Assembly: GCA_963805065.1 (NCBI GenBank)
Contig: CAWDSS010000010.1
Coordinates: forward strand, 984,359 to 1,048,358
Reading direction: 5' to 3'
Origin: Candidatus Omnitrophota bacterium
Lineage (GTDB): Bacteria; Omnitrophota; Gorgyraeia; Gygaellales; Profunditerraquicolaceae
Length of the DNA: 64,000 bases
The notes below the pieces were generated by a model. That model worked only from the letters and a program-made list of their open reading frames with translations, was not told the origin of the DNA and ran no database searches. Below are positions 14,901 to 46,170 of this stretch, in pieces (the first letter of the stretch is position 1; each line of letters begins with the position of its first letter). The translations under genes were made by a program, and so were the position numbers.

Positions 14901-15013
14901 AAGTGGGTTCCTTTCGTTAGTACACATATGGCCATACGATCCGAGATAAGTCAAGTTATATAAGAGATATAGCCTTTAAATATTTAACTACCGTTATGTA
15001 AGCTTAAAGTAGC

Positions 15014-17330: not shown

Positions 17331-17349
17331 TTTGTCTTCCCTTCTTATA

Positions 17350-21600: not shown

Positions 21601-24600
21601 TTTCATTGGAGAATGACACTTTGGTCTGGATAAAAGATGGCAATGACCTTTTTATCGTTACAGAACAAGAAGCAGTGGATGGGGGGGTGATTAGCAAAGT
21701 CTCCTCCTCGCCGCTTAAAACAGCTTTTGCAAGGCGATTAAAGGATCTTGGAATCGCGAGTCTGGGTATTTTAATGTGGGTAACCGCTGCAGGTGCTCAG
21801 GATAATACTTTAGTGCCATCCGCTCAACAGAATCAATACGTACTTAACACAAATTATAGCGATACTTTAAACGGCACTTATGCTAATGTCGATCTTGAAT
21901 TAGGAAAGCATCTAATTTTGACCGTGGGAGCTCTTAAGGGCGCAGAAGAATCCGGCCCTTATGGTCCTTATGCAGGTTTTACCTTTAATACTGTTGAGTC
22001 TAGCCAAGACTTCTTTATGAAAGGTGGTTTTGAGATATCCATGTTTAATTATCAGAACGAGATAGCACAGCAAAATAGCAGTAATTGGTTTGTGGGGAGC
22101 GCAAACTATGCTGTGGCTGAACTCTTCCCTCTGACGAAGACAGTTGATATTACTGTTGGCGGTGCGGCTAGCGTTTCTGGGTCCTATACTAATTCCGGAA
22201 ATGATATATCGGAAAACTGGAGATTCTTTAGCCCTCCGACTTTGGCAGGCAAAATTCTGTTAGGATGGAATATCTCTCCAGACAAAAGAGTCACACTCGG
22301 CCTAGATACAACTGCCTACAATGAATTTACGAATGTCCAGAGTTACAGCATGGCATTTTTTCCATATTCTAAGTTAAGACTAGGGTATTCTACAATATGT
22401 CTTCTGGGAGTTCCAACCAATTTTGGGGCAAGCTACGGAGAAGGGCCGGGTTACGGGCGAATTTTTTCAATTGATACTAAAGGGTCGCCTACACCAGGAA
22501 CCGACGTGGCAGTCGAATACCAGCAGGCAGACAAACCTACCTATGTTATTTTCCCTGAGGGCAGAAAAATAGGCCTAACTGTGGATAAACAGTTAACTAG
22601 CAGAGAAGGAGGGCCAAGGTTCTCATTGACGGCTTCAGTGGAGAAGCTTATTTATGAATGGGGCGGCCATTCTCAAACAAATAGCACAGTAGGTTTTAAG
22701 TTAATCATCCCGTTTCAGCCAACTCGTAACCTAGGCGCGGGTATGTCCGTTGAAAAAGAGGTCGGAACTCCTTTTGTTGCTAACAACTATAAAATCATTC
22801 CTTTTGAATCTCCAGCAGATTTTTCTTTTGATGAACTAAAGCAGGCTTTGGAGACAATGTCTCCTGATGAGTTTGTAAATAATTTTCTGCGTAATCGTAC
22901 TAAAGTTAAGAACTTGAATGATCTATTGCAATCAGTTGCGTATATTACAGATCAATTAGGCACATATAACTGGAGTGAAAAATCAGATCCGCTTTTTAAA
23001 GGTGTGAATATGCTTAATATTACTGACGCCCAGATGCTTAGTACTCTGGGGGAAAGCCTAAGAACTGGTGAACCAATACCAGCAGTAGTTTGTGCCGGCA
23101 TATTTTCAGCAGGATCAGACTGGATTAATGCTGCTAGGTTGCCAGGGGTTTTTGCTTTTCAAGCTTCCGTGGAAGCGGGGCATCCACAAGGCGGCCATAT
23201 CATTACAGTAGTGGTTACTCCCAAAACAATTTATTTGGTGGATTACTTCCAATACAAAATCATAGATACGGGGACTCGTAATTCTGCAGAGGCCCTCGCC
23301 TTGTATGAACGGATACAACAAAACGGCGATGCTGCTTTGACGCATGAGATTTTTCATGGAAGAAAATTCATCGGGTTCGCCGGTGGTCCATTCGATGACA
23401 ATTATGGTTCACGCGATGGCGAACTTCTTAGAAATGCTCTGACTATCGATGGGGGAAAATCGGCGGATAAGCTTTTGGAAGATGCGGTCAAGGCAGTTCA
23501 ACCTTCATTAACTGTGCCAGAACAGCCCAAAGCGACAGAGCCATCACCGAATATTAATCCTGCACCTATTCCCGAAGCACATATGCTAGCCAAAAGCGCC
23601 TCTTCGGCAATGAATAAAGATATAACTAACCGTATAAGCATTTTAAATGATCCTGATAGATACGGCAGAAAAAGAGGGAATTTATCTGAAACAGAAAGCA
23701 TGTATCAGGCTTTGCTGTCCAAATCCCTAGAAAGTGAAGGGTTTTCTTCTGGGCAAGCCAAAACTTTTTCTCTTGCCTTGATACGTTTTTATCAAGGTAC
23801 ATTAAACAATCTTGTCGAAGATGGATTTTTGTCTAGACAAGACAAAGAAGATCTTATTGAGCTGAAAGAATTCAATTTAAATAGATTCAGAACTAAAATG
23901 CAAGAAAATTACGAGGCCTACAAGAATTATACTGGCAAGGGAGGTAAGTTTGCGGAAAGTCAAATATCCTATCTTCTTTTTGCTAAGTTATTTAGTTTCC
24001 AAAGAGCCAAGGGATTAATCGATGAGGAGGGCCTGAGCAGAAACAATATAAGTATAATAGTTAGGTATGCCAATCCTGAAAAATGGTGGCAAGAGAAAAA
24101 GATTTTCCGCGATAGGCTCGTTAATGAGAAGAAATTAGAACTAGGCTATGCCACAAGAATTGTTTTGGAGCACCCCGAAGATCCTTGGGCATGGTGGGCA
24201 AGCGCTGAGGTCACCAGGGATAGATTGGTTGCAGTTGAACACTTAAATCTAACCCAAGCAAACTGGATTGTTGTTCAATATTCAAATCCAATGGAATGGT
24301 GGCAAAAGATAAAGACAATCCGTGATAGGCTAGTTGAAGGAACTGTCACGAAAACAAGCCTTTCTGGGGTCGATTTAATAAGAGACACAATTTTAAATCC
24401 AAACAATATTACAAAAGATAGTATTTGGGAAGAGGTTTCTTCAACAGAGGTGCGTTTAAAGCCAAATATTGACCTAGAACATATTGTCAGTGAAATTGCA
24501 AAGGGTGATTTTGATAAAGTTTGGCCTATTCTACAACAGGTTCTTAGAGAGGGAAAAATAAGCATAGAGGATGCCACTATGATTGTATTGCAGCACCCCA

Positions 24601-25514
24601 AAGATCCTTGGGCATGGTGGGAGAAAGTCAAGCCTGTACGTAAGAATCTGATTGAGAAAGAGCATTTAAGTCCATCAGATGCAACGCGGGTTATTATAAC
24701 ACATCCTCAAGATCCTATGAAATGGTGGATAACAAAAGCCAAACCTTTTGTCAATAAATTAATGGAGGATGGCTTGAAAGAATACGAATCAAAGCAAATG
24801 GTTTTACAACATTCTCGGGACCCGCTTAAGCGATGGGAAGAGGCTAAGGCCGTTCTGAAGGAACTAGTTGAACAAGAAGGATTAAGTAAATCTACCGCAA
24901 AAGAGATTATTAATCAACATTCCTATCCAAAAACATTGTGGTATATTGTGAAAAAAACCAGGGAAGAGCTTATTAACTTGAATCCGTCATTGCGTAAACG
25001 AGAGAAGGGCCTAGCGATTGAGTTTATAAAAAAGGATCCAAATAGATTTCAAGGAAAAGATTTTGGTATTACTGATGAACAGTTGGAAATTGTTTTGAAA
25101 CCGCTGAAAGAGTTTAAGAATAAAGAAAGCTCTGGTTCATCGCCGATAAATGACCTTTTGCCAACAGAAGAAAAACTTGGCATTGCTAAACCCGGCGGCA
25201 TCGACCTCTCCAAGATAGAACTCACGCTTAAAGATGAGAAATACATCTCAAGCCTTAGCCCTGCTGATGTAAAGGTGCTGCGTGCTGCCAAAGCCTTAAA
25301 AGACGGCTGGAACAGCTTATCGTTACTCTATGCGCATGAGGTAATGCTGATGCTAGAAGATAAGGTGGTATTAAGCATCAAGAACAAGCCAATGCTACAG
25401 GAAGTCCTTAACCAGCTTAACAGCAGAGAATGCTTAGACCCTCAAGGCCTCATCTTCTTACAAGCAATGCAATCACGCCTAGCTACCCCTGGATTAGCCG
25501 TAGTTAAACCCTAA
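18645..25514 (+). CDS. Giant secreted multidomain protein (2289 aa): signal peptide, SAM-methyltransferase-like segment, hydrophobic segment with beta-rich region, transglutaminase-like Cys-His-Asp core, C-terminal tandem repeats
   Basis: Uninterrupted 6.9-kb ORF. Signal MKRFFSILLCFFLIFEQSCFAQV. IILDLASG...ILVDKSP resembles MTase motifs I/II (~20290-20650). VVCAG...ARLPGV...GGHIITVV...YLVDY (~23070-23260). About 36-aa repeats at 24040-24990. Confidence 0.8.
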   Translation: MKRFFSILLCFFLIFEQSCFAQVLPMQAIPSWSALPSLRYLSVNSANPYNYFNFLLDRGDKPFTKDSLNLESKKLINYFFLGLTLPSESLWVNLRPDEPGKITSDELSSTDLGRILLEEDLRLKKDGAAYLNPNNPKGKEFWEKLYAAIGKDKLRRTGITTSNRIWIVPDEAVVMETEDGAFVASAKLKVLLENDYLKANPKDATQALTEKLMKEIILPCLAKDVNTSSTYAPVRQIYYSLILAEWYKRKHKTSNDAYSSYINKGSTKGLESELPWSKQKIWQDYLVSYQKGEYNLKSDLFGLKRMYFSGGMDFVQLGSSPMIKLSSLAELTNLKESLPTNPEANKEKFNLYVITNQNTKNPLQIIEGINSKAVEDHMLPVLKTGKGIIGITTEAAQLILPKREEALQSEFGSSAIQPEKTGASSTIFASQTELLSNEQLTDRIDQAIKRFPAIRYTNLTPRQIVESLLTNDMFSPDRKRAVEDTLENILVIPTMPTSDLREELGKILEFADTYAVNPEARSFVDSLAILSAREHVKDMKDTDIASRPAYKFLENTPPGAIILDLASGINMATFMQNLKKDVSYILVDKSPFVKTYLQEVARLFNVNNVTILDQDVLQLAMPGQHFDVIRAKNVPHYVPGFVEKLREMKEWVKIGGQIIIQNDPNWAQRMHAAADYGKFAEELINQGWSFSFKLGQFESYEYNGRTMHDSVLDSLIFTKTEDRSRQSIKTSLKAWVDYLKANVEELLSNINPQISSMTIKPISLELPKQPVVMINEDSLTTTKHLFDKSKIINIDPSLFRDLYRPRLNYADLSYADMDPEVYGEEEGIAMHKNRERFIFTRLGEFLIINEKGIARTMKEEEINDFRKKIEEQRENHTNNLVLKELYNKFIDMQKTIKRTSGSPLITKSDVYNIMNNIIATAEQNPGARITFNTYRFGANTLTQWLAQAGFQNVSISPQLASKHSSILTLFFLSIPNMHKDKRVSTFSLENDTLVWIKDGNDLFIVTEQEAVDGGVISKVSSSPLKTAFARRLKDLGIASLGILMWVTAAGAQDNTLVPSAQQNQYVLNTNYSDTLNGTYANVDLELGKHLILTVGALKGAEESGPYGPYAGFTFNTVESSQDFFMKGGFEISMFNYQNEIAQQNSSNWFVGSANYAVAELFPLTKTVDITVGGAASVSGSYTNSGNDISENWRFFSPPTLAGKILLGWNISPDKRVTLGLDTTAYNEFTNVQSYSMAFFPYSKLRLGYSTICLLGVPTNFGASYGEGPGYGRIFSIDTKGSPTPGTDVAVEYQQADKPTYVIFPEGRKIGLTVDKQLTSREGGPRFSLTASVEKLIYEWGGHSQTNSTVGFKLIIPFQPTRNLGAGMSVEKEVGTPFVANNYKIIPFESPADFSFDELKQALETMSPDEFVNNFLRNRTKVKNLNDLLQSVAYITDQLGTYNWSEKSDPLFKGVNMLNITDAQMLSTLGESLRTGEPIPAVVCAGIFSAGSDWINAARLPGVFAFQASVEAGHPQGGHIITVVVTPKTIYLVDYFQYKIIDTGTRNSAEALALYERIQQNGDAALTHEIFHGRKFIGFAGGPFDDNYGSRDGELLRNALTIDGGKSADKLLEDAVKAVQPSLTVPEQPKATEPSPNINPAPIPEAHMLAKSASSAMNKDITNRISILNDPDRYGRKRGNLSETESMYQALLSKSLESEGFSSGQAKTFSLALIRFYQGTLNNLVEDGFLSRQDKEDLIELKEFNLNRFRTKMQENYEAYKNYTGKGGKFAESQISYLLFAKLFSFQRAKGLIDEEGLSRNNISIIVRYANPEKWWQEKKIFRDRLVNEKKLELGYATRIVLEHPEDPWAWWASAEVTRDRLVAVEHLNLTQANWIVVQYSNPMEWWQKIKTIRDRLVEGTVTKTSLSGVDLIRDTILNPNNITKDSIWEEVSSTEVRLKPNIDLEHIVSEIAKGDFDKVWPILQQVLREGKISIEDATMIVLQHPKDPWAWWEKVKPVRKNLIEKEHLSPSDATRVIITHPQDPMKWWITKAKPFVNKLMEDGLKEYESKQMVLQHSRDPLKRWEEAKAVLKELVEQEGLSKSTAKEIINQHSYPKTLWYIVKKTREELINLNPSLRKREKGLAIEFIKKDPNRFQGKDFGITDEQLEIVLKPLKEFKNKESSGSSPINDLLPTEEKLGIAKPGGIDLSKIELTLKDEKYISSLSPADVKVLRAAKALKDGWNSLSLLYAHEVMLMLEDKVVLSIKNKPMLQEVLNQLNSRECLDPQGLIFLQAMQSRLATPGLAVVKP
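24040..24990 (+). repeat. At least 7 tandem ~36-aa protein repeats (consensus roughly a..IV.qHP.DPw.WW...k..Rd.Lv.e..Ls) inside the giant ORF
   Basis: Recurring YANPEKWWQEKKIFRDRLV, HPEDPWAWWASAEVTRDRLV, YSNPMEWWQKIKTIRDRLV, HPKDPWAWWEKVKPVRKNLI, HPQDPMKWWITKAKPFVNKLM, HSRDPLKRWEEAKAVLKELV, HSYPKTLWYIVKKTREELI. Confidence 0.8.
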
Positions 25515-31555: not shown

Positions 31556-34503
31556 ATGGTTTATAAAATTGAGGTCAAAGAAAAAGCCGGTATTTTTGAT
31601 GCTGTGGGAGAAGGCATCAAAAAGGACATACTGGACTTGGGGATAAATTCTGTCCGCGATGTCCGTTTCATTCAGATTTTTACCATTGAAGGAAACGTCT
31701 CGCAAGACCAGATAGAAAAAATCTGCCAGGAATTGCTTGCCGATAGAATTTCCCAGGAATATCAAATTGACGAGTCAGTGAGTCAGCGAGTCAACAAGTC
31801 AACGGAATTTCTCGTTGAAGTTGCCTATAACCCGGCAGTCACGGATCCTGTTGAAGAATCAACCTTAAAGGGTATTCGCGACTTAGGGATAGAAAGCGTA
31901 ACATCAGTCAAGACAGCCAGGAAATATCTTATCAAGGGTAAACTCACCGATACCCAGCTTAAAACAATTTCAGAAAAGCTGCTTTACAATAAGTTAATAC
32001 AACATGTTGTAAACCCGTTAGCTTTCAGCTTTCAGCTCTCAGCTCTCAGCGAACCAGATTATCAACTCAAATTAATTACAGTAAGCCTGATTAATGCATC
32101 GGATAGAGAATTGCAGAAAATCAGTAAGAATGGTCAGTTATTTTTGGATCTTACTGAAATGCGCCAGATACAGAAATACTTCCAGAGATTAAAACGTAAT
32201 CCCACGGACTGTGAATTGGAAACTATTGCCCAGACCTGGTCAGAGCATTGCTGGCATAAGACGTTTCGGGGAAAAATAAGATACTCTGAGAGGTTATCGG
32301 TTCTAGGTTCTAGGTTCTCGCAAAAACCCAGAACCCAGAATCCAAAACCCAAGTTAATTAATAATCTTCTCAAATCCACTATAATGAAAGTTACCAAAGA
32401 GCTGAATAAGCCCTGGTGCGTTTCGGTATTTAAGGATAATTCCGGCGTGATACGTTTTGACGATAAACATAATGTTTGTTTTAAAGTGGAAACCCATAAT
32501 CATCCTTCTGCATTGGAGCCATTTGGCGGAGCAAATACGGGAATTGGCGGCGTGATCAGGGATCCCCTGGGCACAGGTTTAGGGGCAAAGCCGATACTTA
32601 ATACCGATGTATTTTGTTTTGCGCCACCCGATTATCCGTTTAGTAAATTGCCTTCAGGCACACTGCATCCCAAACGCATCATGAAAGGCGTAGTTTCCGG
32701 CGTGCGTGATTACGGAAATAAAATGGGAATCCCTACTGTCAACGGCGCAATTCTTTTCCACGAAAGATTTATCGGAAATCCGCTGGTTTATTGCGGCACC
32801 GTCGGGATTATGCCCAAAGATAAATCTTTTAAACAGTCAAAGACAGGAGACCTTATTGTCGTAGTAGGCGGCAGGACCGGCAGAGATGGTATTCACGGCG
32901 CAACATTTTCATCGGGAGAATTAACCCATGAATCCGAAACAATCTCCAGCGGCGCAGTGCAGATAGGCAACCCCATTCAGGAAAAAAAGATGGTTGATAC
33001 CATATTACAGGCGCGCGATTTGAATTTATACAATGCTATCACGGATTGCGGAGCAGGCGGATTATCCAGCGCAGTGGGAGAAATGGGCGCTGATTTAGGC
33101 GCGCAAGTTTATTTAGAAAAAGTTCCCTTAAAATATTCGGGTTTATCATATACGGAAATCTGGATTTCCGAATCCCAGGAAAGAATGGTGCTTTCTGTGC
33201 CGAAAGACAAAATCAATTCCCTGATAGAAGTTTTTGAAAAAGAGAATGTTGAGGCTACGGTAATCGGCGAATTTACGGACACTAAAACGCTCAAGCTTTA
33301 TTATAAAGATAATCTGGTTTGCGACCTGGATATGCAATTTTTACACGAAGGCCTGCCCAAAGATAGAGAAAAAAGCGGAATTTATTCAATCCAGGCATAT
33401 AGAGCCAAAATTTGACTGCCCAAAAGACCTGACAAATTATGTTTTGAAATTGCTTTCCAGATACGACATCTGCTCTAAGGAATGGGTAATCAGGCAATAT
33501 GACCATGAGGTGCAGGGAGGCTCGGTATTAAAGCCGTTAGTCGGTATTGTAAATGACGGGCCATCTGATGCCAGCGTGGTCAGGCCTGTTTTAGGGTCCA
33601 GAGCGCGGGATAATCATATCTTGCGGCATAAATTTCAGATTCGGGTTTATTGATCCTTATTGGATGGCGGCATCCTGTATTGATGAAGCATTGCGGCAGA
33701 TAATCGCAGTTGGCGGTTCATTGGAAGAGGTAGCGATTCTGGATAATTTCTGCTGGGGAAATCCCGATAAGCCCGACAGGTTAGGCGGTTTAGTAAGGGC
33801 AGCCTATGGTTGTTATGATATTGCTAAGGCATTTGGCGTGCCGTTTATTTCCGGCAAGGATAGCCTTTATAATGAATATACAGTTAATCATAAGTCTATA
33901 TCAATTCCCGGCACACTCTTAATTTCAGCTATTGCAGTTATGCCAGATGTATTTAAAGCAGTTTCTATGTACGCAAAAAACGCCGGAGACCTCTTATATA
34001 TAGTGGGTAAGACTTATAATGAATTGGGAGGCTCGCATTATTACGATTTACAGGGCAGTTTAGGTAATAATGTGCCTCGCGTTAAACCACAATACGCAAA
34101 AAATACCTTTGCTGCATTAAGCCAGGCTTCATCTTGTGGCCTTATCAAAGCCATGCATGATTGTTCAGAAGGTGGGATTGCAGTTAGCCTGGCAGAGATG
34201 GCATTTGCCGGTGGGTTGGGTGCGGAAATATTTTTATCAGAAGTGCCATATCAGGAGCTCTCAGCTAAAAGGAATGATTCTGTATTATTCTCGGAGTCAA
34301 ATTCCAGGTTTATTGTGGAAGTAGAAAAGAAAAATCAAAAACAGTTTGAAAAAATACTCAACTTAAAAAAAGTATCTTTTGGTTTAATGGGCTGCCTTAC
34401 TAAAGGCAATGAATTTAAAGCCTATGGACTAGACGGAAAAATCTGTATTAATAGCCGCATAGCCGCATTGAAAGAGGCGTGGCTAAAACCATTGAGGTGG
34501 TAG
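31556..34503 (+). pseudogene. purL: PurS-PurS-PurL fusion (FGAM synthase II) interrupted by two apparent +1 frameshifts (near 33369-33375 and 33599-33607). Either a pseudogene or assembly indels.
   Basis: Three consecutive ORF fragments (31556-33415, 33444-33653, 33664-34503) in frames 2, 0 and 1 read as one continuous PurL (WSEHCWHK, ETHNHPSALEPFGGANTGIGGVIRD, SKEWVIRQYDHEVQG, DPYWMAASCIDEALRQI). Confidence 0.8.
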
Positions 34504-34504
34504 A

Positions 34505-35158
34505 ATGAGAGATCTAAAGCCTAAGGAAGATTTTACGCAGGAAGATACCTGGCGTATATTTCGCATCATGTCGGAATTTGTGGAAGGGTTTGAAGTGCTT
34601 TCCCGGGTCGGTAAAGCAGTTTCCATATTCGGTTCTAGCCGTACCAAGCCGGGAACAAAATATTATAAATTAGCCGAAGAGATTGCCTATCTTTTAGCCA
34701 AGGAGGGCTATGTTATTATTACCGGAAGCGGACCGGGCCTTATGGAAGCGGCTAACAAGGGAGCTAAATTTGCCAATGGCAAGTCCGTAGGTTTAAATAT
34801 ACAACTTCCTTTGCAGCAAGAGCCCAATAAATACGTGGATTTGCTTTTGGATTTTCGCTATTTCTTTGTGAGAAAAGTCATGTTCGTAAAATACGCCAAG
34901 GCATTTGTGATTCTCCCCGGAGGTTACGGTACGCTGGATGAGTTTACTGAGGCCATAAACCTTATTCAGACACAAAGAATCCCGGAATTCCCGGTAGTTT
35001 TGTTTAACAGCGAATATTGGAAAGGCATGCTGGATTGGCTAAAAGACAAGGTTTTAAAAAACGGTTGCATCAGTAAACAGGACTTAAATATATTTAGCGT
35101 AGTGGATACGCCTAGAGAAGTGGTAAAAGTAATAAAGAAATTTTATGAAAAAGCCTAA
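34505..35158 (+). CDS. LOG-family (TIGR00730) nucleotide 5'-monophosphate nucleosidase-like protein
   Basis: GSGPGLMEAAN and PGGYGTLDE motifs. Confidence 0.8.
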   Translation: MRDLKPKEDFTQEDTWRIFRIMSEFVEGFEVLSRVGKAVSIFGSSRTKPGTKYYKLAEEIAYLLAKEGYVIITGSGPGLMEAANKGAKFANGKSVGLNIQLPLQQEPNKYVDLLLDFRYFFVRKVMFVKYAKAFVILPGGYGTLDEFTEAINLIQTQRIPEFPVVLFNSEYWKGMLDWLKDKVLKNGCISKQDLNIFSVVDTPREVVKVIKKFYEKA

Positions 35159-35939
35159 AGTATGCGTATTAAGGACAGCAGGCACTAATTGCGATAAGGA
35201 GACCGTATTTGCCTTTCAAAAGTCAGGCGCTGATACAGAGCTTGTGCATATTAACAGCCTGATTAATGCCGAAAAAAATCTTTCCAGTTATCAGATTTTA
35301 GCTATTCCCGGCGGATTTTCTTACGGAGATGATATAGCCGCAGGAAAAATTTTTGCCAATGAATTAAAGAATAAGCTTGCAGATGACCTCAAGAAATTTA
35401 TTGCAGAGGGAAAGCTTATTATCGGCATTTGCAACGGCTTCCAAATTCTGGTTAAAAGCGGATTATTGCCGGGGAATCCTCAATTAAAACAGGATACAAG
35501 CCTTATTATAAACGATTCAGGCAAATTCGAGGACCGCTGGGTGTATTTAAGGCAAAAGGAAAAAGGCAAAAGGCAAAACTGTGTATGGACAAGAAATATT
35601 CCGGAAATAATTTATCTTCCGGTGGCGCACGGAGAAGGAAAATTTATTACACAGGATAAAGCGCTGCTGGGAAAATTAAAGAGAAATCATCAGATTGTTT
35701 TTCAGTATTGTGACGAAAAAGGAAAACTAGCAGGTTACCCATATAATCCTAATGGCTCAACAGATAACATCGCAGGCATCTGTGATGAAACCGGAAGGAT
35801 CCTGGGGCTTATGCCGCATCCGGAGAGGCATATTGATATTCGTCAGCATCCCCGGTGGGCGTCATCAAAAAATAAAAAACAAGGAGACGGATTCGCGATT
35901 TTTAAAAACGGGGTGGAATATGCAAAAAATATTTTGTGA
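35145..35939 (+). CDS. purQ: FGAM synthase I, glutaminase subunit
   Basis: Class I amidotransferase motifs: GICNGFQ (nucleophile Cys) and MPHPER. Confidence 0.9.
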   Translation: MKKPKVCVLRTAGTNCDKETVFAFQKSGADTELVHINSLINAEKNLSSYQILAIPGGFSYGDDIAAGKIFANELKNKLADDLKKFIAEGKLIIGICNGFQILVKSGLLPGNPQLKQDTSLIINDSGKFEDRWVYLRQKEKGKRQNCVWTRNIPEIIYLPVAHGEGKFITQDKALLGKLKRNHQIVFQYCDEKGKLAGYPYNPNGSTDNIAGICDETGRILGLMPHPERHIDIRQHPRWASSKNKKQGDGFAIFKNGVEYAKNIL

Positions 35940-37362
35940 CGATAAACCCAAAGAATATTGCGGTTTATTCGGAATTATAAATAACAGGCACGCCAGTTGG
36001 TTAACGTATCTGGGCTTGTATGCGCTGCAGCACCGTGGCCAGGAAGCCTGTGGGATAGTAGCCAATAAAAACGGCATTTTGAATATACATAAAGGCATGG
36101 GGTTAGTGAGCGATGTGTTTGACGAGCAGGTCTTGGGCAAATTAAAAGGTGATATCGCCGTCGGCCATGTGCGTTATTCTACTACCGGTTCAAGCGTTTT
36201 AAAAAACTCCCAGCCCCTTCTGATTGATTATGCTAAAGGCTCAATATGCATTGCGCATAACGGCAATCTGGTTAATTCATTGGAGCTTAGGCAATCCCTG
36301 GAAAAAAGCGGCTCAATATTCCAGACCACTACTGATTCCGAAATTATCATACACTTAATGGCACACGCAAAATCGCAAAACTTAAAACAAAGCCTGATTT
36401 ATGCGCTTAAGAGGGTTAAAGGGGCTTATTCTTTGATTATGATGGATAACCGCACGCTTATCGGCACAAGAGACCCCTTCGGGTTTAGGCCTCTTTCTTT
36501 GGGAAAAGTAGGCAATTCTTTTTGCCTGGCATCAGAAACTTGCGCCTTTGATTTAATCGGAGCAAAATTCATCCGTGATATTGAGCCGGGAGAAATAGTT
36601 TTCATAACTAAATATGGCATAAAATCAATTAAGCCAAAAGTTTTAAAGGTTAACGCAAGGTTGGCATTCTGTACCTTTGAGCACGTTTATTTTGCGCGGC
36701 CTGATTCTGTGGTGTTTGGAGAAACTGTGCATACTGTAAGGCGCAGGCTGGGAGAACAATTAGCAAAGGAATATCCTATAAATGCAGATTTTGTGGTGCC
36801 TGTGCCTGATTCGGGATTTTCCGCAGCATTGGGTTATTCCCAGGAGTCCGGCATTCCTTTAGAAATGGGCATTATTCGTAACCATTACGTAGGAAGGACC
36901 TTTATTCAGCCGGCCCAGGATGCGCGCGACCTGGGCGTGAGAGTTAAATTTAATTTGCTGAAGGATGTTTTAAAAGGCAAGCGCATAGTTATTGTGGATG
37001 ATTCCATAGTCCGCGGGACAACTTCAAAAATACGCGTGCGCAATTTACGCAAAGCCGGTGTAAAAGAAGTGCATTTACGGATTTCTTGCCCCGCGCACAG
37101 GTTTCCCTGTTTTTACGGGATTGATTTCCATAAAGCATCGGAATTAATCGCCAATAGATATGAATCGCTGGATAAAATAAGAGAATACCTGGAAGTCGAT
37201 AGTTTAGGTTATTTAAGTTTAGAAGGGATGCTTTCCTGCTTGAAACATTCAGAAGATCATTATTGTACTGCTTGCTGGACAGGCAAATACCCGGTTATGG
37301 CAGAAAAAGAACACGGAAAGTTTTCCCTTGAAATGCGTTGCTGTGGACAGGGAGACATATAA
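35920..37362 (+). CDS. purF: Amidophosphoribosyltransferase
   Basis: Short propeptide then CGLFGI Ntn cysteine, PRTase motif VIVDDSIVRGTT, C-terminal Fe-S cysteines. Start set at the ATG at 35920 because the upstream ORF-track extension overlaps purQ. Confidence 0.9.
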   Translation: MQKIFCDDKPKEYCGLFGIINNRHASWLTYLGLYALQHRGQEACGIVANKNGILNIHKGMGLVSDVFDEQVLGKLKGDIAVGHVRYSTTGSSVLKNSQPLLIDYAKGSICIAHNGNLVNSLELRQSLEKSGSIFQTTTDSEIIIHLMAHAKSQNLKQSLIYALKRVKGAYSLIMMDNRTLIGTRDPFGFRPLSLGKVGNSFCLASETCAFDLIGAKFIRDIEPGEIVFITKYGIKSIKPKVLKVNARLAFCTFEHVYFARPDSVVFGETVHTVRRRLGEQLAKEYPINADFVVPVPDSGFSAALGYSQESGIPLEMGIIRNHYVGRTFIQPAQDARDLGVRVKFNLLKDVLKGKRIVIVDDSIVRGTTSKIRVRNLRKAGVKEVHLRISCPAHRFPCFYGIDFHKASELIANRYESLDKIREYLEVDSLGYLSLEGMLSCLKHSEDHYCTACWTGKYPVMAEKEHGKFSLEMRCCGQGDI

Positions 37363-38378
37363 TGAATAAGTTAACCTATAAAAAAGCAGGGGTAGATATT
37401 TGTTCTGCAAATATCTTTAAGGGTAAGATAAAAACCTTAGTGAGAAAATCTTTCAGGCAGGAGGTATTGAAGGACATTGGCGGCTTCGGAAGTTTCTTTC
37501 GCATGCCAAAAGATAAATACAAGAATCCGGTTTTGGTTTCCTCTTCTGACGGAGTGGGCACAAAATTAAAGATAGCTAACCTGGTAAATAAGCACGATAC
37601 TGTGGGAATTGATGCAGTAGCCATGAATGTGAATGATATTCTTTGCACGGGCGCAGAGCCGTTATTCTTTCTGGACTACATTGCTTACAGCAAAGTAAAT
37701 CCCGAAGTATTATTTGAAGTGGTTAAAGGCTTGAATTCAGGTTGTATTGAGTCAGGGTGTTCTTTAATCGGCGGTGAAACAGCGCAAATGCCCGGCATGT
37801 ACAAGTTTGGAGAATACGATTTAGCGGGTTTTTGCGTGGGGGTAGTTGAGAGAAAGGCCATTATTGACGGCTCTAAGATTAAAGCGGGAGACCTGGTTAT
37901 AGGGCTTGAATCCAGCGGAATACATTCTAATGGTTATTCGTTGGTGAGAAAAATATTTTCTAATAATGAATTAAGGCGCATGAGCAAAGAATTACTTAAG
38001 CCTACAAGAATCTATGTCAAACCCGTACTATCTTTATTACGACCATCGACCATCGACCATCGACCATCGATTACCGGTATTGCTCATATTACAGGCGGGG
38101 CCTTTTACGATAAGATAAAACGTATATTACCAAATGATGTAAATGTCTGGATAAACAAAAATTCCTGGCCTGTGCCAAAAATATTTAAACTAATTCAGAA
38201 CAAAGGCAATATACAGGACAAAGAAATGTATCATACCTTTAATATGGGAATAGGTATGGTTTTGGTAGTTGAGCCTAGGATATCAAAAAATATAATAAAT
38301 AAACTTGCTCAATTTAAATTGAAGTCCTGGATTATTGGAGAAATATTGGCAGGCAAAAGGCAGGTAGAGATAGTTTAA
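37362..38378 (+). CDS. purM: Phosphoribosylformylglycinamidine cyclo-ligase (AIR synthase)
   Basis: LTYKKAGVDI, DGVGTK, DYIA, GGETAQMPG, AHITGGAF. Confidence 0.9.
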   Translation: MNKLTYKKAGVDICSANIFKGKIKTLVRKSFRQEVLKDIGGFGSFFRMPKDKYKNPVLVSSSDGVGTKLKIANLVNKHDTVGIDAVAMNVNDILCTGAEPLFFLDYIAYSKVNPEVLFEVVKGLNSGCIESGCSLIGGETAQMPGMYKFGEYDLAGFCVGVVERKAIIDGSKIKAGDLVIGLESSGIHSNGYSLVRKIFSNNELRRMSKELLKPTRIYVKPVLSLLRPSTIDHRPSITGIAHITGGAFYDKIKRILPNDVNVWINKNSWPVPKIFKLIQNKGNIQDKEMYHTFNMGIGMVLVVEPRISKNIINKLAQFKLKSWIIGEILAGKRQVEIV

Positions 38379-38577
38379 GTGAGGACATAAGTTATGGAGT
38401 CTTATATCCAAGGTAATGTAAAATGACATAACTTATATGTCCGAACTTATCCTTGACACGTAAGATTCAAAATGCGTGTCATCGAATTCGTGTCAAGGAT
38501 CTAATTCGCGCAGATAACCCAGCACATAAATTATGTGCTGGGTTATGCGCTCATTAAAAAAAGAGGGAGGGGTAAAA

Positions 38578-39447
38578 ATGAACTTATTTTATTCTTTACT
38601 GGGAGTGACGATATTTATATTTCTTATCGGGATCAGGATAGTCAGGCCTACGCATAGAGGCTTAATTGAAAGGTTCGGCAAATATAACCGCTTTGCCCAG
38701 CCTGGATTTAACTGGATTATGCCTATTGTAGAAGTCATGTATCAGGTAAATATAACCGAACAGATGGTTGATGCAGAGCCGCAGGAGATTATCACTAATG
38801 ATAACCTTAATGCTAAAGTAGATGCCCAGGTTTATTTTAAGGTTAAGGCTGATGAGGCAGATGTCAAGAGCTCCATTTACAATGTGAATAACTATCAGTG
38901 GCAGATAGTGAATTTGGCCCGCACAACCTTAAGAAACATTATCGGCACGCTTACTTTAAAATCCGCGAACAGCGAAAGAGGAAAGATTAATGCTGAGTTG
39001 CACAACACTCTTTGCCTTGAAACTGCAAACTGGGGATTAGAGATTGTGCGCACGGAATTAAAAGAGATTGATCCTCCAAAAGATGTCCAGGAAACAATGA
39101 ATAAGGTAGTTAAGGCAGAGAATGAGAAAATTGCGGCAATTGATTTTGCTACTGCTACTGAAACCGCTGCTGACGGGCAAAAGAGGGCAGAGATCAAGAA
39201 GGCCGAGGGCATAAAGCAGGCGCGTATTTTAGAGGCAGAAGGAGAAGCATTGGCGATTAAGTTGGTAAATGAAGCGGCAGAAAAATATTTTGTAGGAAAT
39301 GCCCAAGTGTTGCGAAAACTGGAGGCGGTTGAAAAGTCGTTGCAGAATAACGCAAAGATTGTGGTTCCCGCAAATACTGAGTTAGTCAATGTAATCGGTG
39401 AAATGGCCGGTTTTTTGCCGTTGAAGAAAGAAAAAGAATCGAAGTAA
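38578..39447 (+). CDS. SPFH/band-7 (stomatin/prohibitin-like) membrane protein
   Basis: N-terminal TM helix, SPFH core and an Ala/Glu-rich coiled tail. Start at MNLFY after gagggagggg, because the ORF-track start lies inside a 16-bp palindrome. Confidence 0.8.
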   Translation: MNLFYSLLGVTIFIFLIGIRIVRPTHRGLIERFGKYNRFAQPGFNWIMPIVEVMYQVNITEQMVDAEPQEIITNDNLNAKVDAQVYFKVKADEADVKSSIYNVNNYQWQIVNLARTTLRNIIGTLTLKSANSERGKINAELHNTLCLETANWGLEIVRTELKEIDPPKDVQETMNKVVKAENEKIAAIDFATATETAADGQKRAEIKKAEGIKQARILEAEGEALAIKLVNEAAEKYFVGNAQVLRKLEAVEKSLQNNAKIVVPANTELVNVIGEMAGFLPLKKEKESK

Positions 39448-39509
39448 AATAGATACCGTATTTGAAGTTTGCTCTTTGTAATGAATCTGTCGTTTTTCTT
39501 GCTCTATCG

Positions 39510-39685
39510 ATTTTGTGGGTCCTGCCGAGGCTTGTTTTCGCAGCATCGCTCGATTTTCCCCAGCGTGGAAAATCTTCGCTCAAGCTGAAGCCTTCGCTCT
39601 TGGTAAGTTCCCCTAAACGAGGCAAACCATGCCCGCTCCGGCTTCCTTATGTGCTGCTCAAATCAAGCCTCGTCACCCACAAAAT
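39510..39685. other. Long-range hairpin element A (176 nt), a candidate structured RNA or MITE
   Basis: attttgtgggt...gaggcttg (39510-39534) pairs with caagcctc...acccacaaaat (39664-39685). Further nested pairings: gcagca/tgctgc, gattttcc/ggaaaatc, gaagcc/ggcttc. Confidence 0.45.
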
Positions 39686-39817
39686 GAAGCAAGTGTCTTG
39701 AAAGCGAGTTAATAAAAATAATTAATGTTTCAAAGAAATAGTAAATAGGAGTTTAGCTATTAAAAACTTACTTTCTTTTAACCATTTAGATGATACTCAA
39801 TTTGAAGAATTTTATGC

Positions 39818-39979
39818 GTTTCGCTGAAGGCACATTAGAAAATTTTCGGCACAGCTATTAGTAGCAGTGCGCAAGGAATTACGCCGAACGAAAGGCAGCG
39901 CTTAAGCGTAAGTCACCATGACCGAAAGTGAGGCGTAAGCCGCAGCGCACGGCGAAAATTTTCAGTGCCGAAGCGAAAC
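39818..39979. other. Long-range hairpin element B (162 nt), ending 22 nt before the purD start
   Basis: gtttcgc..ggcac..gaaaattttc (39818-39848) pairs with gaaaattttc..gtgcc..gcgaaac (39953-39979). Internal gtgcgc/gcgcac and gcgcttaagcg hairpins. Confidence 0.45.
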
Positions 39980-40000
39980 CATAAAATTAAATTCGATAAT

Positions 40001-41275
40001 ATGAGAATATTAGTTATTGGATCTGGTGGCAGGGAGCATGCGCTGGTGTGGAAAATCGCGCAGTCTAAATTAGCGGATAAGATTTTTTGTGCTTCCGGAA
40101 ATGCCGGAATAGCGCAAATTGCCGAATGCATTGATATAAGAGCCGACGACATTCCGGGATTAATAGATTTTGCCAGAAGAGAAAAAATAGATTTGACTGT
40201 GGTCGGGCCAGAAGTCCCCTTAGCTTTAGGCATTGTAGATGAATTCAGCAATTATAAATTAAGGATATTCGGCCCGAATAAAAAAGCAGCGCAATTGGAG
40301 GGAAGTAAGGTATTTGCCAAGCAGTTAATGGCAAAATACAAAGTCCCTACCGCTGATTTTAAAGTTTTTGAGAGTGCAGATGAGTCCAAGAAGTATATAG
40401 AAAAAATCGGCGCTCCTTGTGTAGTAAAAGCCGATGGATTGGCGCAAGGTAAGGGCGTAGTAGTAGCTAAAACCATTGATGAGGCGAAACAGGCAGTAGA
40501 GTCCATGATGCAGCATAAGATATTCGGCGACGCAGGCAACAAGGTAATAATAGAGGAATGCCTTCAGGGCCAGGAAGCCTCAATACTGGTGATTACGGAT
40601 TCTAAAGAAGTTATTGCTTTAGCCTCAGCCCAGGATCATAAACGGGTGTTTGATAATGATCAGGGTCCTAATACTGGCGGGATGGGTGCATATTCCCCTG
40701 CCTCCGTAGTAACTAAAGAATTATTCAAAGAAATTTTAGACAAAATAGTATACCGCACAATAGATGGTTTAGTAAAAGAGGGCATAGATTACCGCGGAGT
40801 TTTGTATGCGGGAGTAATGCTTACTAAAGATGGCCCGAAGACTTTAGAATTTAATGTGCGTTTTGGCGATCCTGAAACACAGACGATTCTGCCCAGATTA
40901 AAATCGGATTTACTGGAAATAATGCTGGCGACAGCTGAACAAAAATTAAACCGTGTAAGAAATCTTGAATGGGATAACCGCGCTTGTGTCTGCGTGGTTT
41001 GCGCTGCAGGGGGCTATCCGGGAAATTATACAAAAGGAGAAGACATCTTTGGCTTAGATAAAGTAGACAAGATGAAAGATATTGTAGTTTTTCATGCAGG
41101 CACTAAGTTGCAGAATAATAAAGTTACCACTAATGGCGGGCGCGTCCTGGGAGTAACCGGTTTAGGCAACACCATAAAAGAGGCAATTGATAATACCTAT
41201 TTAGCATTAAACGAGATAAGCTTTAAGGGAATGCATTATAGGAAAGATATAGGTAGCAGGGCATTGCAAAGTTAA
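40001..41275 (+). CDS. purD: Phosphoribosylamine-glycine ligase
   Basis: MRILVIGSGGREHAL, ATP-grasp motifs, GPNTGGMGAY, RFGDPE. Confidence 0.9.
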   Translation: MRILVIGSGGREHALVWKIAQSKLADKIFCASGNAGIAQIAECIDIRADDIPGLIDFARREKIDLTVVGPEVPLALGIVDEFSNYKLRIFGPNKKAAQLEGSKVFAKQLMAKYKVPTADFKVFESADESKKYIEKIGAPCVVKADGLAQGKGVVVAKTIDEAKQAVESMMQHKIFGDAGNKVIIEECLQGQEASILVITDSKEVIALASAQDHKRVFDNDQGPNTGGMGAYSPASVVTKELFKEILDKIVYRTIDGLVKEGIDYRGVLYAGVMLTKDGPKTLEFNVRFGDPETQTILPRLKSDLLEIMLATAEQKLNRVRNLEWDNRACVCVVCAAGGYPGNYTKGEDIFGLDKVDKMKDIVVFHAGTKLQNNKVTTNGGRVLGVTGLGNTIKEAIDNTYLALNEISFKGMHYRKDIGSRALQS

Positions 41276-41367
41276 AAGTAAAAAGCCAAAAGGAAAAAGT
41301 GTAAGTAAAAAGTAAAAACTTTTAAATTTTAACTTAAACTTTTACCTTTTTGCTTTTAACTTTTGAC
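41271..41367. repeat. Imperfect hairpin built from heptamer units gNNaaaa (6-7 per arm). The right arm (41333-41364) is the exact reverse complement of 45099-45130.
   Basis: Read directly: gttaaaa gtaaaaa gccaaaa ggaaaaa gtgtaa gtaaaaa gtaaaaa / cttttaaatttt / reverse-complement arm. Confidence 0.8.
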
Positions 41368-41383
41368 TTTAATGGGAGGTATT

Positions 41384-41869
41384 ATGAAAAATTCCATCAG
41401 CATAATCATGGGAAGCCAATCGGATTTAGAAACAGTAAATGAGGCGATTAATTTATTGAAGGAATTCAAGGCGGCATTTGAAATAAAGGTTTTATCTGCG
41501 CATAGGACGCCTAAGGAATTGGCTCAATATGTAGAAAACGCGCAAAAAAATGGGATTAAGGTTTTTATTGCTGCTGCCGGCGGAGCTGCTGCCTTGGCAG
41601 GGGTCGTTGCTTCGCATACCACTTTACCGGTAATCGGCATACCTATTGAAACCAAAAGCCTAAAAGGCCTGGATTCATTGCTATCCACGGTGCAGATGCC
41701 CGCCGGTATTCCGGTTGCCAGCATGGCAATAGGCAAGGCCGGTGCTAAGAATGCAGCGATATTCGCACTGGAGATTCTGGGTGTTACAGACCGAAAGATA
41801 GAATCAAAACTACTGAAATACAAAAAAGAAATGAAAATAAAAATAAGAAAGCTGAAAGTTAATAGCTAA
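41384..41869 (+). CDS. purE: N5-carboxyaminoimidazole ribonucleotide mutase
   Basis: IIMGSQSDL, SAHRTP, AAGGAAALAGVVA motifs. Confidence 0.9.
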   Translation: MKNSISIIMGSQSDLETVNEAINLLKEFKAAFEIKVLSAHRTPKELAQYVENAQKNGIKVFIAAAGGAAALAGVVASHTTLPVIGIPIETKSLKGLDSLLSTVQMPAGIPVASMAIGKAGAKNAAIFALEILGVTDRKIESKLLKYKKEMKIKIRKLKVNS

Positions 41870-41871
41870 AA

Positions 41872-42933
41872 ATGACCTCCACCAAAATAGTAAAGCTTGA
41901 TCCGAGTCAGCCTGATTTAAACAGCATCAAACAAGCAGGCTCTATTTTAAAGAATGGTGGATTAGTGATTATGCCTACAGAAACCGTATACGGCATAGCA
42001 GCGAATAACTTAAATAAAAAAGCCATTGAAAGGCTATATGTAATCAAGAACAGGCCTAAGGATAAACTTTTTTCCCTGCATATCGATGATAAAAGAAAAA
42101 TTGAGGATTTCGCCACGGCTATACCGGTTTGCGCGTATAAGCTAATTGATAAATTCTGGCCCGGGCCTTTAACCATTATACTTAAATCAAAAAATAACGG
42201 AGGAATCGGCATACGTATGCCCGATGAGAAAATCGCCTTGAAAGTTATTGCTGAAGCAGGCGTTCCGTTGGTTTGTCCCTCTGCGAATATTTCCGGAGAG
42301 CCTGCGCCAAAGAATTTTGCGCAAGCCATAAAAGATTTGAACGGATTAGTTGATTTTGCCATAGATTCTGGTCCTACAAAAATAGGTATTGAATCCACAG
42401 TAGTGGACTTAACGCAAGACCCGCCTCGTGTTTTACGGGAGGGAGCAATAAAAAATGACGATATTCACGCGGTTGTCAGTAAAAAAATAGTTACCTTTGT
42501 CTGTACGGGTAATTCCTGCCGTTCTGTAATGGCTAAAGCGCTCTTGGAGAAAAAACTGGCAGAAAAAAATAGAAACGACGTAGAAGTCCTGTCTGCCGGA
42601 TTAATGCCGGTAGCAGGTTTTAGCGCAACAGAAGAAACAAAGACAGCCTTAAGGCAGGAAGGCATGGATGTTTCCTCTCACCGTTCCCAACGATTGACCT
42701 GGGATATGGCGGAAAAGTCAGACTTGATTCTGGTTATGGAAAAAGTACACGAAGAAAAAATCCTGGAGATGGCCCCGGATGTAAAAAATAGGCTTTTTTT
42801 ATTAAAGGAATTTGCTAAAATAAACAATAATAGCCTTGATATAGCTGACCCAATAGGAAAATCACAGGAATTTTACGGTCAGACATTTTTGATAATCAAA
42901 GAGGCGGTAGAAAGGGTGAGTAATTTAATATGA
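41872..42933 (+). CDS. tsaC: Fusion of L-threonylcarbamoyladenylate synthase (TsaC/Sua5 YrdC domain) with a low-molecular-weight protein phosphatase domain
   Basis: N-terminal PTETVYGIAAN and SAN.SG YrdC motifs. C-terminal VCTGNSCRS P-loop and a DP motif typical of LMW-PTP/arginine phosphatases. Confidence 0.75.
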   Translation: MTSTKIVKLDPSQPDLNSIKQAGSILKNGGLVIMPTETVYGIAANNLNKKAIERLYVIKNRPKDKLFSLHIDDKRKIEDFATAIPVCAYKLIDKFWPGPLTIILKSKNNGGIGIRMPDEKIALKVIAEAGVPLVCPSANISGEPAPKNFAQAIKDLNGLVDFAIDSGPTKIGIESTVVDLTQDPPRVLREGAIKNDDIHAVVSKKIVTFVCTGNSCRSVMAKALLEKKLAEKNRNDVEVLSAGLMPVAGFSATEETKTALRQEGMDVSSHRSQRLTWDMAEKSDLILVMEKVHEEKILEMAPDVKNRLFLLKEFAKINNNSLDIADPIGKSQEFYGQTFLIIKEAVERVSNLI

Positions 42934-43391
42934 GCCGAATAGCCATAGCTTGCGACCATGCAGGTTTCTTTTTAAAAGAAAAATTGAAGTCATACCTTAC
43001 TAAAAAGGGCATGAAAGTAAAAGATTTAGGCACGTATTCAAAAGAACGCTGCGATTATCCTGATTTTGCTTATGCATTAGCCAAGGAAGTTTCCCTCTCA
43101 AAAGTAAAACGGGGCATTTTAATATGTAAGAGCGGCATTGGCAATTCCATAGTAGCTAACAGACTCCCGGGTGTGCGTGCAGCATTATGCTATAACATAA
43201 AGGCAGCTAGGCTTTCGCGGGAGCATAATGATAGCAACGTCCTGGCGTTAGGTTCAGCTTTTGTAAATGAGAGTTTGGCAAAAAGAATTACTGCCGCCTG
43301 GCTTGCAGCCGGATTCAAAGGAGGCAGGCACAGAAGAAGACTTAATAAGATACGAAAAATCGAGAAAAAGATAAGGAGTGGATTAAAGTGA
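42930..43391 (+). CDS. rpiB: Ribose-5-phosphate isomerase B
   Basis: [40 protein letters not shown]. Confidence 0.85.
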
Positions 43392-44637: not shown

Positions 44638-45129
44638 ATGAAGAAAACTACACAACAAAGGCCTAGCTGGGATGAATATTTTTTAGAAGTAGCGCATTTA
44701 GTGGCTAAAAGGTCGACCTGCCTACGGCGTAGCGTGGGTGCAGTCTTAGTCAAGGATAAAAGAATCCTGGCTACGGGTTACAATGGCGCTCCATCAGGGC
44801 TTAAGCATTGTGTTGATATTGGTTGCCTGCGTCAAAAGCTTAATATCCCATCAGGCGAGCGCCACGAATTATGCAGGGCTTTACACGCAGAGCAGAATGC
44901 GCTTATCCAGGCTTCGCTTTACGGTATAAGTGTCAAGGACAGCATTCTTTATGCCACTAATCAGCCCTGTGTTATTTGCGCTAAGATGTTAATTAATGCC
45001 GGGATAAAGGAAATTGTTATAGCTTCAGGATATCCGGATAAGTTGGCGATGGACTTTTTGAAGGAAGCTAAGATTAGAATAAGAAACACAGAAAAGTTAA
45101 AAGTTAAAAGCAAAAAGGTAAAAGTTTAA
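44638..45129 (+). CDS. dCMP deaminase (ComEB family). The C-terminal 12 aa are encoded by a heptamer-repeat tract.
   Basis: HAEQNA and PCVICAK zinc motifs. The tail [12 protein letters not shown] is encoded by 45091-45130. Confidence 0.85.
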
Positions 45130-45130
45130 G
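45091..45130 (+). repeat. Heptamer tract (gaaaagt taaaagt taaaagc aaaaagg taaaagt ttaag). 45099-45130 is identical to the reverse complement of 41333-41364.
   Basis: 32-nt exact match read by hand. Confidence 0.8.
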
Positions 45131-45136
45131 ATAGAG

Positions 45137-45207
45137 GAAGAAAAGGGGACGTTTCTATTTTTAACGTCTCCGGTTTAACAGAAAAATAGAAACGTCCCCT
45201 TTTCTTC
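45137..45207. repeat. Perfect 26-bp-stem hairpin with a 19-nt loop
   Basis: gaagaaaaggggacgtttctattttt (45137-45162) and its exact reverse complement (45182-45207). Confidence 0.85.
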
Positions 45208-45259
45208 TGGCTTTAGGCTGAGGAATATTCATTTCTTTAGTTTGAGGAGCGAAGCGACG

Positions 45260-45739
45260 ATGAAGTGTCCATTTTGCGGTTATAAGGAAGACAAGGTAGT
45301 TGATTCGCGTTCGACCGCCGAAGAGTCGGCAGTCAGGCGAAGGAGAGAATGCCTTAAGTGCGGCAAACGTTTTACTACTTATGAATATGTAGAAGAAGTT
45401 TCGCTTATGGTGATAAAAAAAGACGGCAGGCGCGAGCCGTTTGACCGAAAGAAAATTTTGTCAGGGATAATAAAGGCTTGCGAGAAAAGGCCTGTTAGCA
45501 TAGAGAAGATGGAGGATGTCTTAACGCAGGTAGAGCGCGCCATTCAGAAGAAGTCCGATAGAGAAATATCTGCTTCCCGCATCGGAGAGCTAGTAATGGA
45601 AAAGTTAAAATCGCTGGATGATGTGGCCTATGTGAGGTTTGCTTCGGTTTACAGGCAATTTAAGGATGTCGGCCAATTCATGCAGGAATTAAAAGATATG
45701 CTGGATAAGGAAAAATCGGTTTTGAAAAGGAGAAATTAA
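45260..45739 (+). CDS. nrdR: Transcriptional repressor NrdR
   Basis: MKCPFCG...C.KCG zinc ribbon plus ATP-cone. Confidence 0.9.
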   Translation: MKCPFCGYKEDKVVDSRSTAEESAVRRRRECLKCGKRFTTYEYVEEVSLMVIKKDGRREPFDRKKILSGIIKACEKRPVSIEKMEDVLTQVERAIQKKSDREISASRIGELVMEKLKSLDDVAYVRFASVYRQFKDVGQFMQELKDMLDKEKSVLKRRN

Positions 45740-46153: not shown

Positions 46154-46170
46154 ACAGCAAGGTATCTATT

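Follow-up and report, generated by a model that had tools for sequence, protein, structure and literature searches.

The window (the whole 64-kb stretch of DNA that was analysed) contains a pur cluster extending from 33.6 to 43.4 kb (Table 1), and the largest gap within this cluster separates purD from an SPFH/Band-7 gene, which is not itself a pur gene. The SPFH ORF ends at 39447 and the ATG of purD lies at 40001, which leaves a spacer of 553 nt (39448-40000), compared with 154 and 87 nt for the gaps next door. The closest relatives of PurD are 81-82% identical, and all of them come from Candidatus Omnitrophota MAGs, which places the window in this phylum. An earlier note on this DNA had described the interval as non-coding, approx. 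550 nt long, and the largest in the cluster, which is correct, and as GC-richer than its neighbourhood, which applies to its parts to different degrees: the GC content is 0.48-0.51 for one structured element (A) and 0.42-0.48 for the other (B), approx. 0.40 in the surroundings, and 0.27 in the stretch that separates A from B (39700-39800).

Two features of the neighbouring genes should also be mentioned. The pur cluster includes a gene of the LOG/SLOG family ('possible lysine decarboxylase'), which separates purQ from the purL part. In addition, a perfect 16-bp palindrome (ATAACCCAGCACATAA/TTATGTGCTGGGTTAT) at 38514-38546 extends across the start codon of the SPFH gene (38533) and could be an operator-like site. 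Promoter-like and terminator-like sites between 38300 and 40300 occur at chance level (five sites in a generic scan vs. 4.3 expected).

Table 1. Genes and elements in and around the spacer between the SPFH gene and purD, with copies of the related G core; positions are those of the window unless a locus is named.
Feature	Position	Strand	Basis or remark
purL part	33664-34503		
LOG/SLOG-family gene	34505-35158		
purQ	35145-35939		
purF	35752-37362		
purM	37338-38378		
SPFH/Band-7 gene, 5' neighbour of the gap	38533-39447	+	Pfam Band_7, 1.8e-38
Terminal module X1 of the A unit (AATGAATCTGTCGTTTTTCTTGCTC…)	39480-39510	+	motif recurs beside A, B, and G cores
Element A core	39511-39684	-	helices, family HMM, alignments, covariation
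A closing helix	39510-39520/39675-39685		11 bp, perfect
A inner closing helix	39523-38/39660-75		16 nt at 88%
A P2 helix, gcagca/tgctgc	39540-45/39652-57		
A P3 hairpin, gattttcc/ggaaaatc	39552-59/39567-74		
A helix, gaagcc/ggcttc	39587-92/39640-45		
A variable hairpin	~39600-39625		
A CGCTC/TGCTC motifs (n=5)	39547, 39577, 39595, 39634, 39655		minus strand reads GAGCG/GAGCA
Decayed outer flank of the A unit	39685-39712		AAAGCGAG is a module remnant
AT-rich spacer between A and B	39713-39787		GC 0.27; small inverted repeat 39724-38/39772-86
Probable decayed X2 module before B (GATGATACTCAATTTGAAG; consensus AATGAAYCTGGCG..TTTCGAGCGAAT)	39788-39806	+	by-eye comparison
Element B core, rod-like hairpin	39807-39988	+	family of 13-14 members
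B helix	39808-16/39980-88		
B helix	39818-25/39972-79		
B helix	39838-48/39953-63		11 bp, perfect
Conserved B motif GCAAGGAATTACGCC	39871-85		
Conserved B motif GGCGTAAGCCGCAGC	39932-46		
purD (GARS), 3' neighbour of the gap	40001-41275	+	Pfam GARS_A/N/C
purE	41363-41869		
Sua5 fusion	41872-42933		
rpiB	42930-43391		
G core copies	L118 3424-3687; L106 3841-4055; L012 9579-9798		
G core copies	L155 1643-1853; L168 2354-2577; L190 1292-1527		

Two structured elements between the SPFH gene and purD

The reading of A and B as structured hairpins of approx. 175 nt is borne out: both fold far better than shuffled sequences (z -5.4 to -8.4), and every helix that had been named for them is present at its coordinates. 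The folding energy of A is -66.1 on the plus strand (z -5.4) and -79.5 on the minus strand (z -5.95), whereas that of B is -76.5 (z -8.4) and -69.0 (z -5.9), respectively, and each beats 200 dinucleotide shuffles. The better-structured strand in the window is therefore the minus strand for A and the plus strand for B.

The extent of A had been given as 39510-39685. The helices do occupy this span, but the unit reaches farther to the left, up to 39480, where a conserved terminal module begins. The window retains this left module in intact form (39480-39504), and related elements carry the same module in inverted form at the opposite end. The right flank of the window copy (39685-39712) differs from intact X modules in that the terminal CAGRTTCAT is absent; its GCAAG pairs with CTTGC at 39499-39503, and a fold that includes the flanks lengthens the helix. 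The AT-rich spacer beyond this flank (39713-39787) has no homolog elsewhere. It is followed by a short stretch which, compared by eye with three other loci (L175, L141, and L152) in which an intact X2 module precedes B, may tentatively be regarded as a decayed X2. The 3' end of the B core lies 12 nt before the purD ATG.

The two ORFs that overlap this region, 39462-39701 (+) and 39386-39625 (-), of 79 aa each, are present but, as already suspected, non-coding. In the case of A, the lengths of family members are spread evenly over the three classes modulo 3 and the variation within helices is compensatory, which argues that the element does not encode a protein. Open frames are frequent on the C-rich strand (82-84%), equally so for either direction of the neighbouring gene, so that neither translational coupling nor a peptide is indicated. 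Several other roles were considered and rejected. For the ATG in the X module to serve as a start codon, a ribosome-binding site would be expected, but A and T predominate at positions -12 to -6, G is rare there, no purine-rich site is discernible, and the variation 3' of the ATG is non-synonymous. The X module was also considered as a promoter, because a TAnAAT-like hexamer is often found across the junction; however, the flanks are AT-rich anyway, and no -35 element is conserved. Finally, A and B are not convincing as the ends of a composite transposon, as the outer X modules are inconsistently present.

Distribution, ends, and age of families A, B, and G

The earlier note had proposed a BLASTN search for additional copies. 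The 64-kb window contains no further copy of A or B (blastn and nhmmer), but many copies were found in Omnitrophota loci and metagenomes. A comparison set of 80 purD loci from Omnitrophota and from outside this phylum, searched with blastn and then nhmmer, yielded ten full-length A copies in nine other purD loci (L001, L003, L004, L012, L013 with two copies, L019, L022, L026, and L033), at varied distances from purD and on both strands; among these 80 loci, no A homolog occurred in those from outside Omnitrophota. A search pattern of three conserved blocks (AGCGGSCANGG…CWCGSNGGG…SRWRCGNNSCYGMRA), which retrieves all 11 known copies, matched at least 120 metagenome stretches. When nhmmer was applied to 200 loci plus the window (1.84 Mb), 150 hits were obtained, 101 of them full length; there are three in each of L088, L098, and L129 and two in each of 13 other loci. 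Viral contigs contained no match to either the A or the B pattern, and the two matches to the X1 pattern in these contigs were chance occurrences without an element. A plasmid collection searched by blastn in distant mode likewise gave no match.

The copies of A are intergenic, and because the gaps that harbour them can be as small as 184-200 nt, A often fills the whole gap. The flanking genes mostly have no homolog in the 64-kb window; those whose sequences were read are presumably ordinary genes, encoding, for example, a RuvB-like protein or a probable radical-SAM enzyme. Where both neighbours are co-directional, A has the same orientation as the genes in 46 cases and the opposite one in 20, so that approx. 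70% of copies (46/66) have their better-structured strand antisense to the adjoining genes. Eight copies adjoin an SPFH gene, and all eight lie immediately 3' of it in one orientation, even though their sequences fall into different subtypes; one old insertion may have given rise to all of them, or the site may be a hot spot.

Element B belongs to a second family, of 13-14 members, whose copies adjoin unrelated genes on either strand. A third core, designated G (TTTTAGCCAAAGCAGCTTGAGC…), is bounded by AATGAAYCTG modules and is often located directly beside an A copy. In all 12 loci, including the window, that carry A and B no more than 800 nt apart, A is followed by B in the same order and relative orientation, at a spacing of 0-763 nt, although these loci may not all be independent. 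None of the families of Rfam 15 was detected, whether in the whole window at gathering thresholds or in the gap and 13 related loci at permissive ones; the permissive noise consisted of Ocean-V (18 bits vs. a gathering threshold of 75) plus miRNA and scaRNA fragments. A literature search for repeats, MITEs, or ncRNAs of Omnitrophota found nothing. The A/B/G superfamily is previously undescribed and has so far been seen only in Omnitrophota.

The core of A measures 162-203 nt (median 170) and ends in TTTWGCGGGTG…CACCCGCWAAA, and in most copies nothing is conserved farther out. A subset carries an extra module on each side, which reads AATGAAYCTG(K)CG, then TTTTC, and then either CTCGCTC (X1) or GAGCG (X2). 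Many A copies have no X module, whereas in 13 complete units, 211-264 nt long, inverted AATGAAYCTG…CAGRTTCATT forms the boundaries. The same X module flanks B cores in four loci (L175, L141, L152, and L160) and G cores in six (L012, L106, L118, L155, L168, and L190). Given these common ends and different interiors, the three families are mosaics.

Related genomes indicate that A and B at purD are insertions. In five loci (L007, L008, L009, L014, and L020), the SPFH gene and purD are separated by only 0-18 nt and no element is present, and in L003, which is among the closest relatives, the distance is 92 nt, again with no element. The 92-nt spacer of L003 (9908-10000) has a 14-nt inverted repeat of its own (gggacggttctcaa…ttgagaaccgtccc), unrelated to A or B. 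At another site, both L013 and L003 have an A copy between an ORF of 136-139 aa and the next gene, whereas the equivalent site of the window (46153/46171) is empty and has a spacer of 17 nt (46154-46170). In L026, an internally deleted A is found directly 5' of purD (9900-9985); it retains the outer helix and P2 but has lost the interior.

MITEs are defined as small elements that lack a transposase gene and have terminal inverted repeats and flanking target duplications (PMC3184786). The suggestion in the earlier note that the elements might be MITEs fits this definition in part: the copies are dispersed and found in both orientations, empty sites exist, and terminal inverted repeats are present, but no duplication could be discerned, and the copies are old and diverged. 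Both the cores and the complete units are small and contain no transposase gene. The inverted repeats comprise the core ends and, in the 13 complete units, the X module, and copies occur in at least 120 stretches and in diverse contexts, with up to three hits per contig. No consistent direct repeat could be discerned beyond a possible TA, in flanks that are AT-rich, and the comparison of occupied with empty sites revealed no clear duplication of fixed length. There is no transposase among the ORFs flanking A copies, and no autonomous partner, sought as an X…X pair 340-6000 nt apart, was found in 1.8 Mb. Nor were near-identical copies seen within a genome, as those on the same contig share 49-83% identity (eight pairs, a small sample), compared with a mean of 64% between contigs. 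Thus, there is no sign of a recent burst or recent transposition; either the copies are old and the fold has been kept in each, or they come from long-diverged master lineages.

Conserved fold and competing interpretations

Covariation in A was assessed on an alignment (A4) of 79 non-redundant copies with a model of 49 pairs; RNAalifold was also run. Under the model, 91.5% of cells are paired, as opposed to 74.8% in column shuffles and 33-46% with slid partners. Changes on both sides have occurred in 39 of the 49 pairs, with 563 compensatory cells, and all five pairing measures lie above 500/500 shuffles and all slid controls. The consensus structure of B has 29 pairs, nine of which covary. 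Both A and B therefore possess a covariation-backed consensus, as is required of a structured RNA family. It should be noted, however, that covariation is evidence for a conserved fold of one strand and does not show that this strand is RNA.

As for which strand is folded, 98 of 101 A copies have the more stable fold on the reverse strand (mean -80.2 vs. -70.6 kcal/mol), and 68 of 79 keep a U·G pair on this strand; in B, all 13 copies out of 13 favour the forward strand. Five GAGCG motifs follow each other in a row on one strand of A and constitute conserved purine-rich internal loops. According to a reading of the alignment, facing motifs would pair as G-C/C-G, with G·A and A·G oppositions on either side. 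When A and B are oriented by X1 and X2, they agree, the purine-loop strand running from X2 to X1 in both. The frequency of G·U relative to A·C was abandoned as a strand test, because the two are about equal in well-aligned helices (approx. 34 vs. 26 cells in a manual tally); the strand call therefore rests on the G·A loops, the U·G pair, and the energies. The interior junction of A is more conserved than its termini, a pattern opposite to that of typical MITEs and like that of a functional RNA.

Taken together, the most probable reading, to which we assign a probability of approx. 0.7, is that the gap harbours A and B as members of a hairpin-forming, non-coding, MITE/ERIC-like repeat superfamily and that they are old, non-autonomous passengers. 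The elements would be, or would once have been, non-autonomous MITE/ERIC-type repeats, and the enzyme that moves them would act in trans and be encoded elsewhere. A and B would have landed in a spacer between the SPFH gene and purD that was once very short, and B-type units would tend to land beside A-type units. If this spacer is cotranscribed with the SPFH gene and purD, two very stable stem-loops would be added to the transcript, the end of B being so close to the purD start codon, and the message might be processed or translated differently or change in stability. The strand specificity of the GAGCG·GAGCG loops suggests, in addition, that one single strand (RNA or DNA) is recognised by a protein.

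An unlikely alternative is that A and B are functional structured RNAs that act in cis on processing or stability or that bind a protein. Selection would then keep the loci, mobility would be incidental or long past, and the GAGCG strand would be the active one. The very strong covariation of A, its junction sequences conserved above the termini, and the retained U·G wobble are what such a role would predict, but the better-structured strand is mostly antisense to its neighbours, and G·U hardly exceeds A·C in the clear helices. Similarly, same-contig copies still fold despite their divergence, and the SPFH-adjacent copies share one position and orientation, yet the presence of the elements varies among close relatives, neither a conserved promoter nor a conserved terminator was recognised, and some elements fill gaps of 184-200 nt. 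The antisense bias in approx. 70% of copies argues in particular against a simple role in mRNA. Nonetheless, one single strand, whether RNA or DNA, may be the functional species, given that the junction is conserved above the ends and the loop motif is strand specific.

It is conceivable, although doubtful, that A, B, and G represent a new class of rod-shaped elements in which one strand shows tandem G·A loops of the GAGCG·GAGCG type to a dedicated protein. If this were true, the elements would be dispersed protein-binding or self-processing RNAs, or else an element mobilised via an RNA or single-stranded DNA intermediate; the mobilising enzyme would be one not yet linked to such substrates, and the elements would be more than cut-and-paste MITEs.

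Movement as single-stranded DNA, comparable to that of REPIN/RAYT or of palindromes derived from IS200/IS605, with the strand-specific fold as the substrate of the enzyme, appears improbable. Such a fold, with its conserved mismatched loops, would be suitable for this purpose, but a multi-branch structure of 170 nt is far above the size of a REP hairpin. Different modules adjoin each other in a mosaic, as they do in BIMEs, although the units have true terminal inverted repeats, which are absent from IS200/IS605 ends, and no HUH or RAYT gene was seen among the ORFs flanking the copies. The 46:20 orientation bias against gene direction could reflect the direction of replication; however, assuming that the genes are co-oriented with replication, the bias would be opposite to that expected for insertion into the lagging-strand template.

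The proposal of a novel purine-pathway leader, in which B, alone or with A, would be a purD-specific leader or riboswitch for a purine-pathway metabolite, has a negligible likelihood. B is indeed strongly folded and located directly 5' of purD on the same strand, but it occupies this position in the window only and is absent from it in the other 31 Omnitrophota purD loci, and its homologs are found beside unrelated genes on either strand. Six of these 31 loci have an A copy no more than 1.2 kb 5' of purD, on either strand. A conserved purD leader is therefore ruled out, since B is never found 5' of purD in the 31 other loci and A is found there in only six; both elements are located mostly beside unrelated genes. 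Moreover, Rfam gave no match at either gathering or permissive thresholds, purine, ZTP, PRPP, and THF riboswitches included, in agreement with the comparison in the earlier note. We infer that A and B do not sense purines. The other proposal, that A or B represents 6S RNA or some different housekeeping sRNA present in single copy, might be prompted by their approx. 180 nt, rod-like shape, and long closing stem, but it can be dismissed for practical purposes, as no Rfam 6S match was obtained even at E up to 10, nor in 13 further loci, and the elements are multi-copy, variably present, and tightly packed between genes, with no promoter or terminator signal standing out.

Relation to known repeats and other elements in the window

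Among known systems, the closest analogue in behaviour is, by comparison of features, ERIC, which is old, diverged, and structure-preserving and occurs in either orientation in transcribed spacers. ERIC sequences, or IRUs, of Enterobacteriaceae are imperfect palindromes of approx. 127 bp that are classed as MITEs (PMC3184786). MITEs in general can form a long stem-loop as RNA and are often located 3' of genes and co-transcribed with them (PMC3184786). The present elements resemble ERIC in that they are intergenic, often just 3' of genes and in either orientation, form a long stem-loop, and are variably present between relatives as old, diverged copies. Wilson and Sharp are said to have described in 2006 that pairing in ERIC is maintained by compensatory change. 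Unlike ERIC, to which they are unrelated in sequence, the elements occur in another phylum, measure 162-264 nt rather than 127, branch repeatedly in the interior, where GAGCG·GAGCG loops are conserved, and combine several cores with one terminal module; furthermore, no flanking TA duplication could be discerned for them.

Correia elements of Neisseria (CREE/NEMIS) likewise form a hairpin at the RNA level and can be located between co-transcribed genes (PMC3184786). With these and other bacterial MITEs (RUP, Nezha, and Chunjie), the present elements share the non-coding character, a length below 300 bp, terminal inverted repeats, numerous dispersed copies, and insertion polymorphism. They differ from them in that no clear duplication, partner transposase, or near-identical copies were found and in that the interior is conserved above the ends. 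REP units of approx. 35 nt and REPINs of approx. 100 nt are both simple hairpins and presumably act single-stranded. The elements are similar to REP, BIME, and REPIN sequences in being palindromic, strand-asymmetric, and extragenic and in forming mosaics of adjoining module types; however, they have true terminal inverted repeats, and neither a RAYT gene nor a head of the GTAG type was observed. Compared with 6S RNA, size and rod shape are similar, but the elements are multi-copy and match no covariance model. With purine-pathway riboswitches they have in common a position 5' of a pur gene, although they are tied to no gene class and occur on either strand.

The recognition of A and B as inserted repeats removes a false lead, as the region 5' of purD is no riboswitch candidate and the pur cluster is split by two inserted repeats. 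In addition, at least three related families (A, B, and G) with a common terminal module, which are absent from Rfam, have been defined, and their alignments could seed covariance models and thus improve the annotation of Omnitrophota MAGs. The elements create spurious ORFs, such as the two of 79 aa at this locus, and likely contribute to contig breaks. Among MITEs, it is unusual to find a strand-specific, covariation-backed fold in which tandem G·A loops recur; this fold offers a handle on the protein that would recognise it.

The window contains other repeats as well. A 210-nt element at 17136-17345, between the ORFs 16779-17162 and 17332-18369, is closed by a helix of approx. 30 bp that encloses five near-perfect hairpins (MFE -103.6 kcal/mol, z -9.9); it has no Rfam match and no homolog in the 200 loci. 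The spacer between purD and purE contains an AT-rich palindrome with 46-nt arms (41268-41363), which has relatives at 45093-45133 of the window, at 9537-9638 of L006, and at 3071-3130 of L010; these form another small family, which is not related to either A or B. At 45137-45207, a 19-nt loop is enclosed by a perfect inverted repeat of 26 bp, which lies between the ORFs 44638-45129 and 45242-45739, and has a weak homolog at 556-616 of L002.

Recombination genes and a tRNA gene are located at 1688-2254, 3160-4224, 12280-12353, 12792-14420, and 14430-14954. These genes encode a small serine resolvase, a tyrosine integrase, and a large serine recombinase with a DUF2924 protein, beside the only tRNA of the window, which suggests that one or two integrated mobile elements are present in the first 15 kb. 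Farther along, positions 18645-25514 are taken up by a single ORF of 2289 aa.
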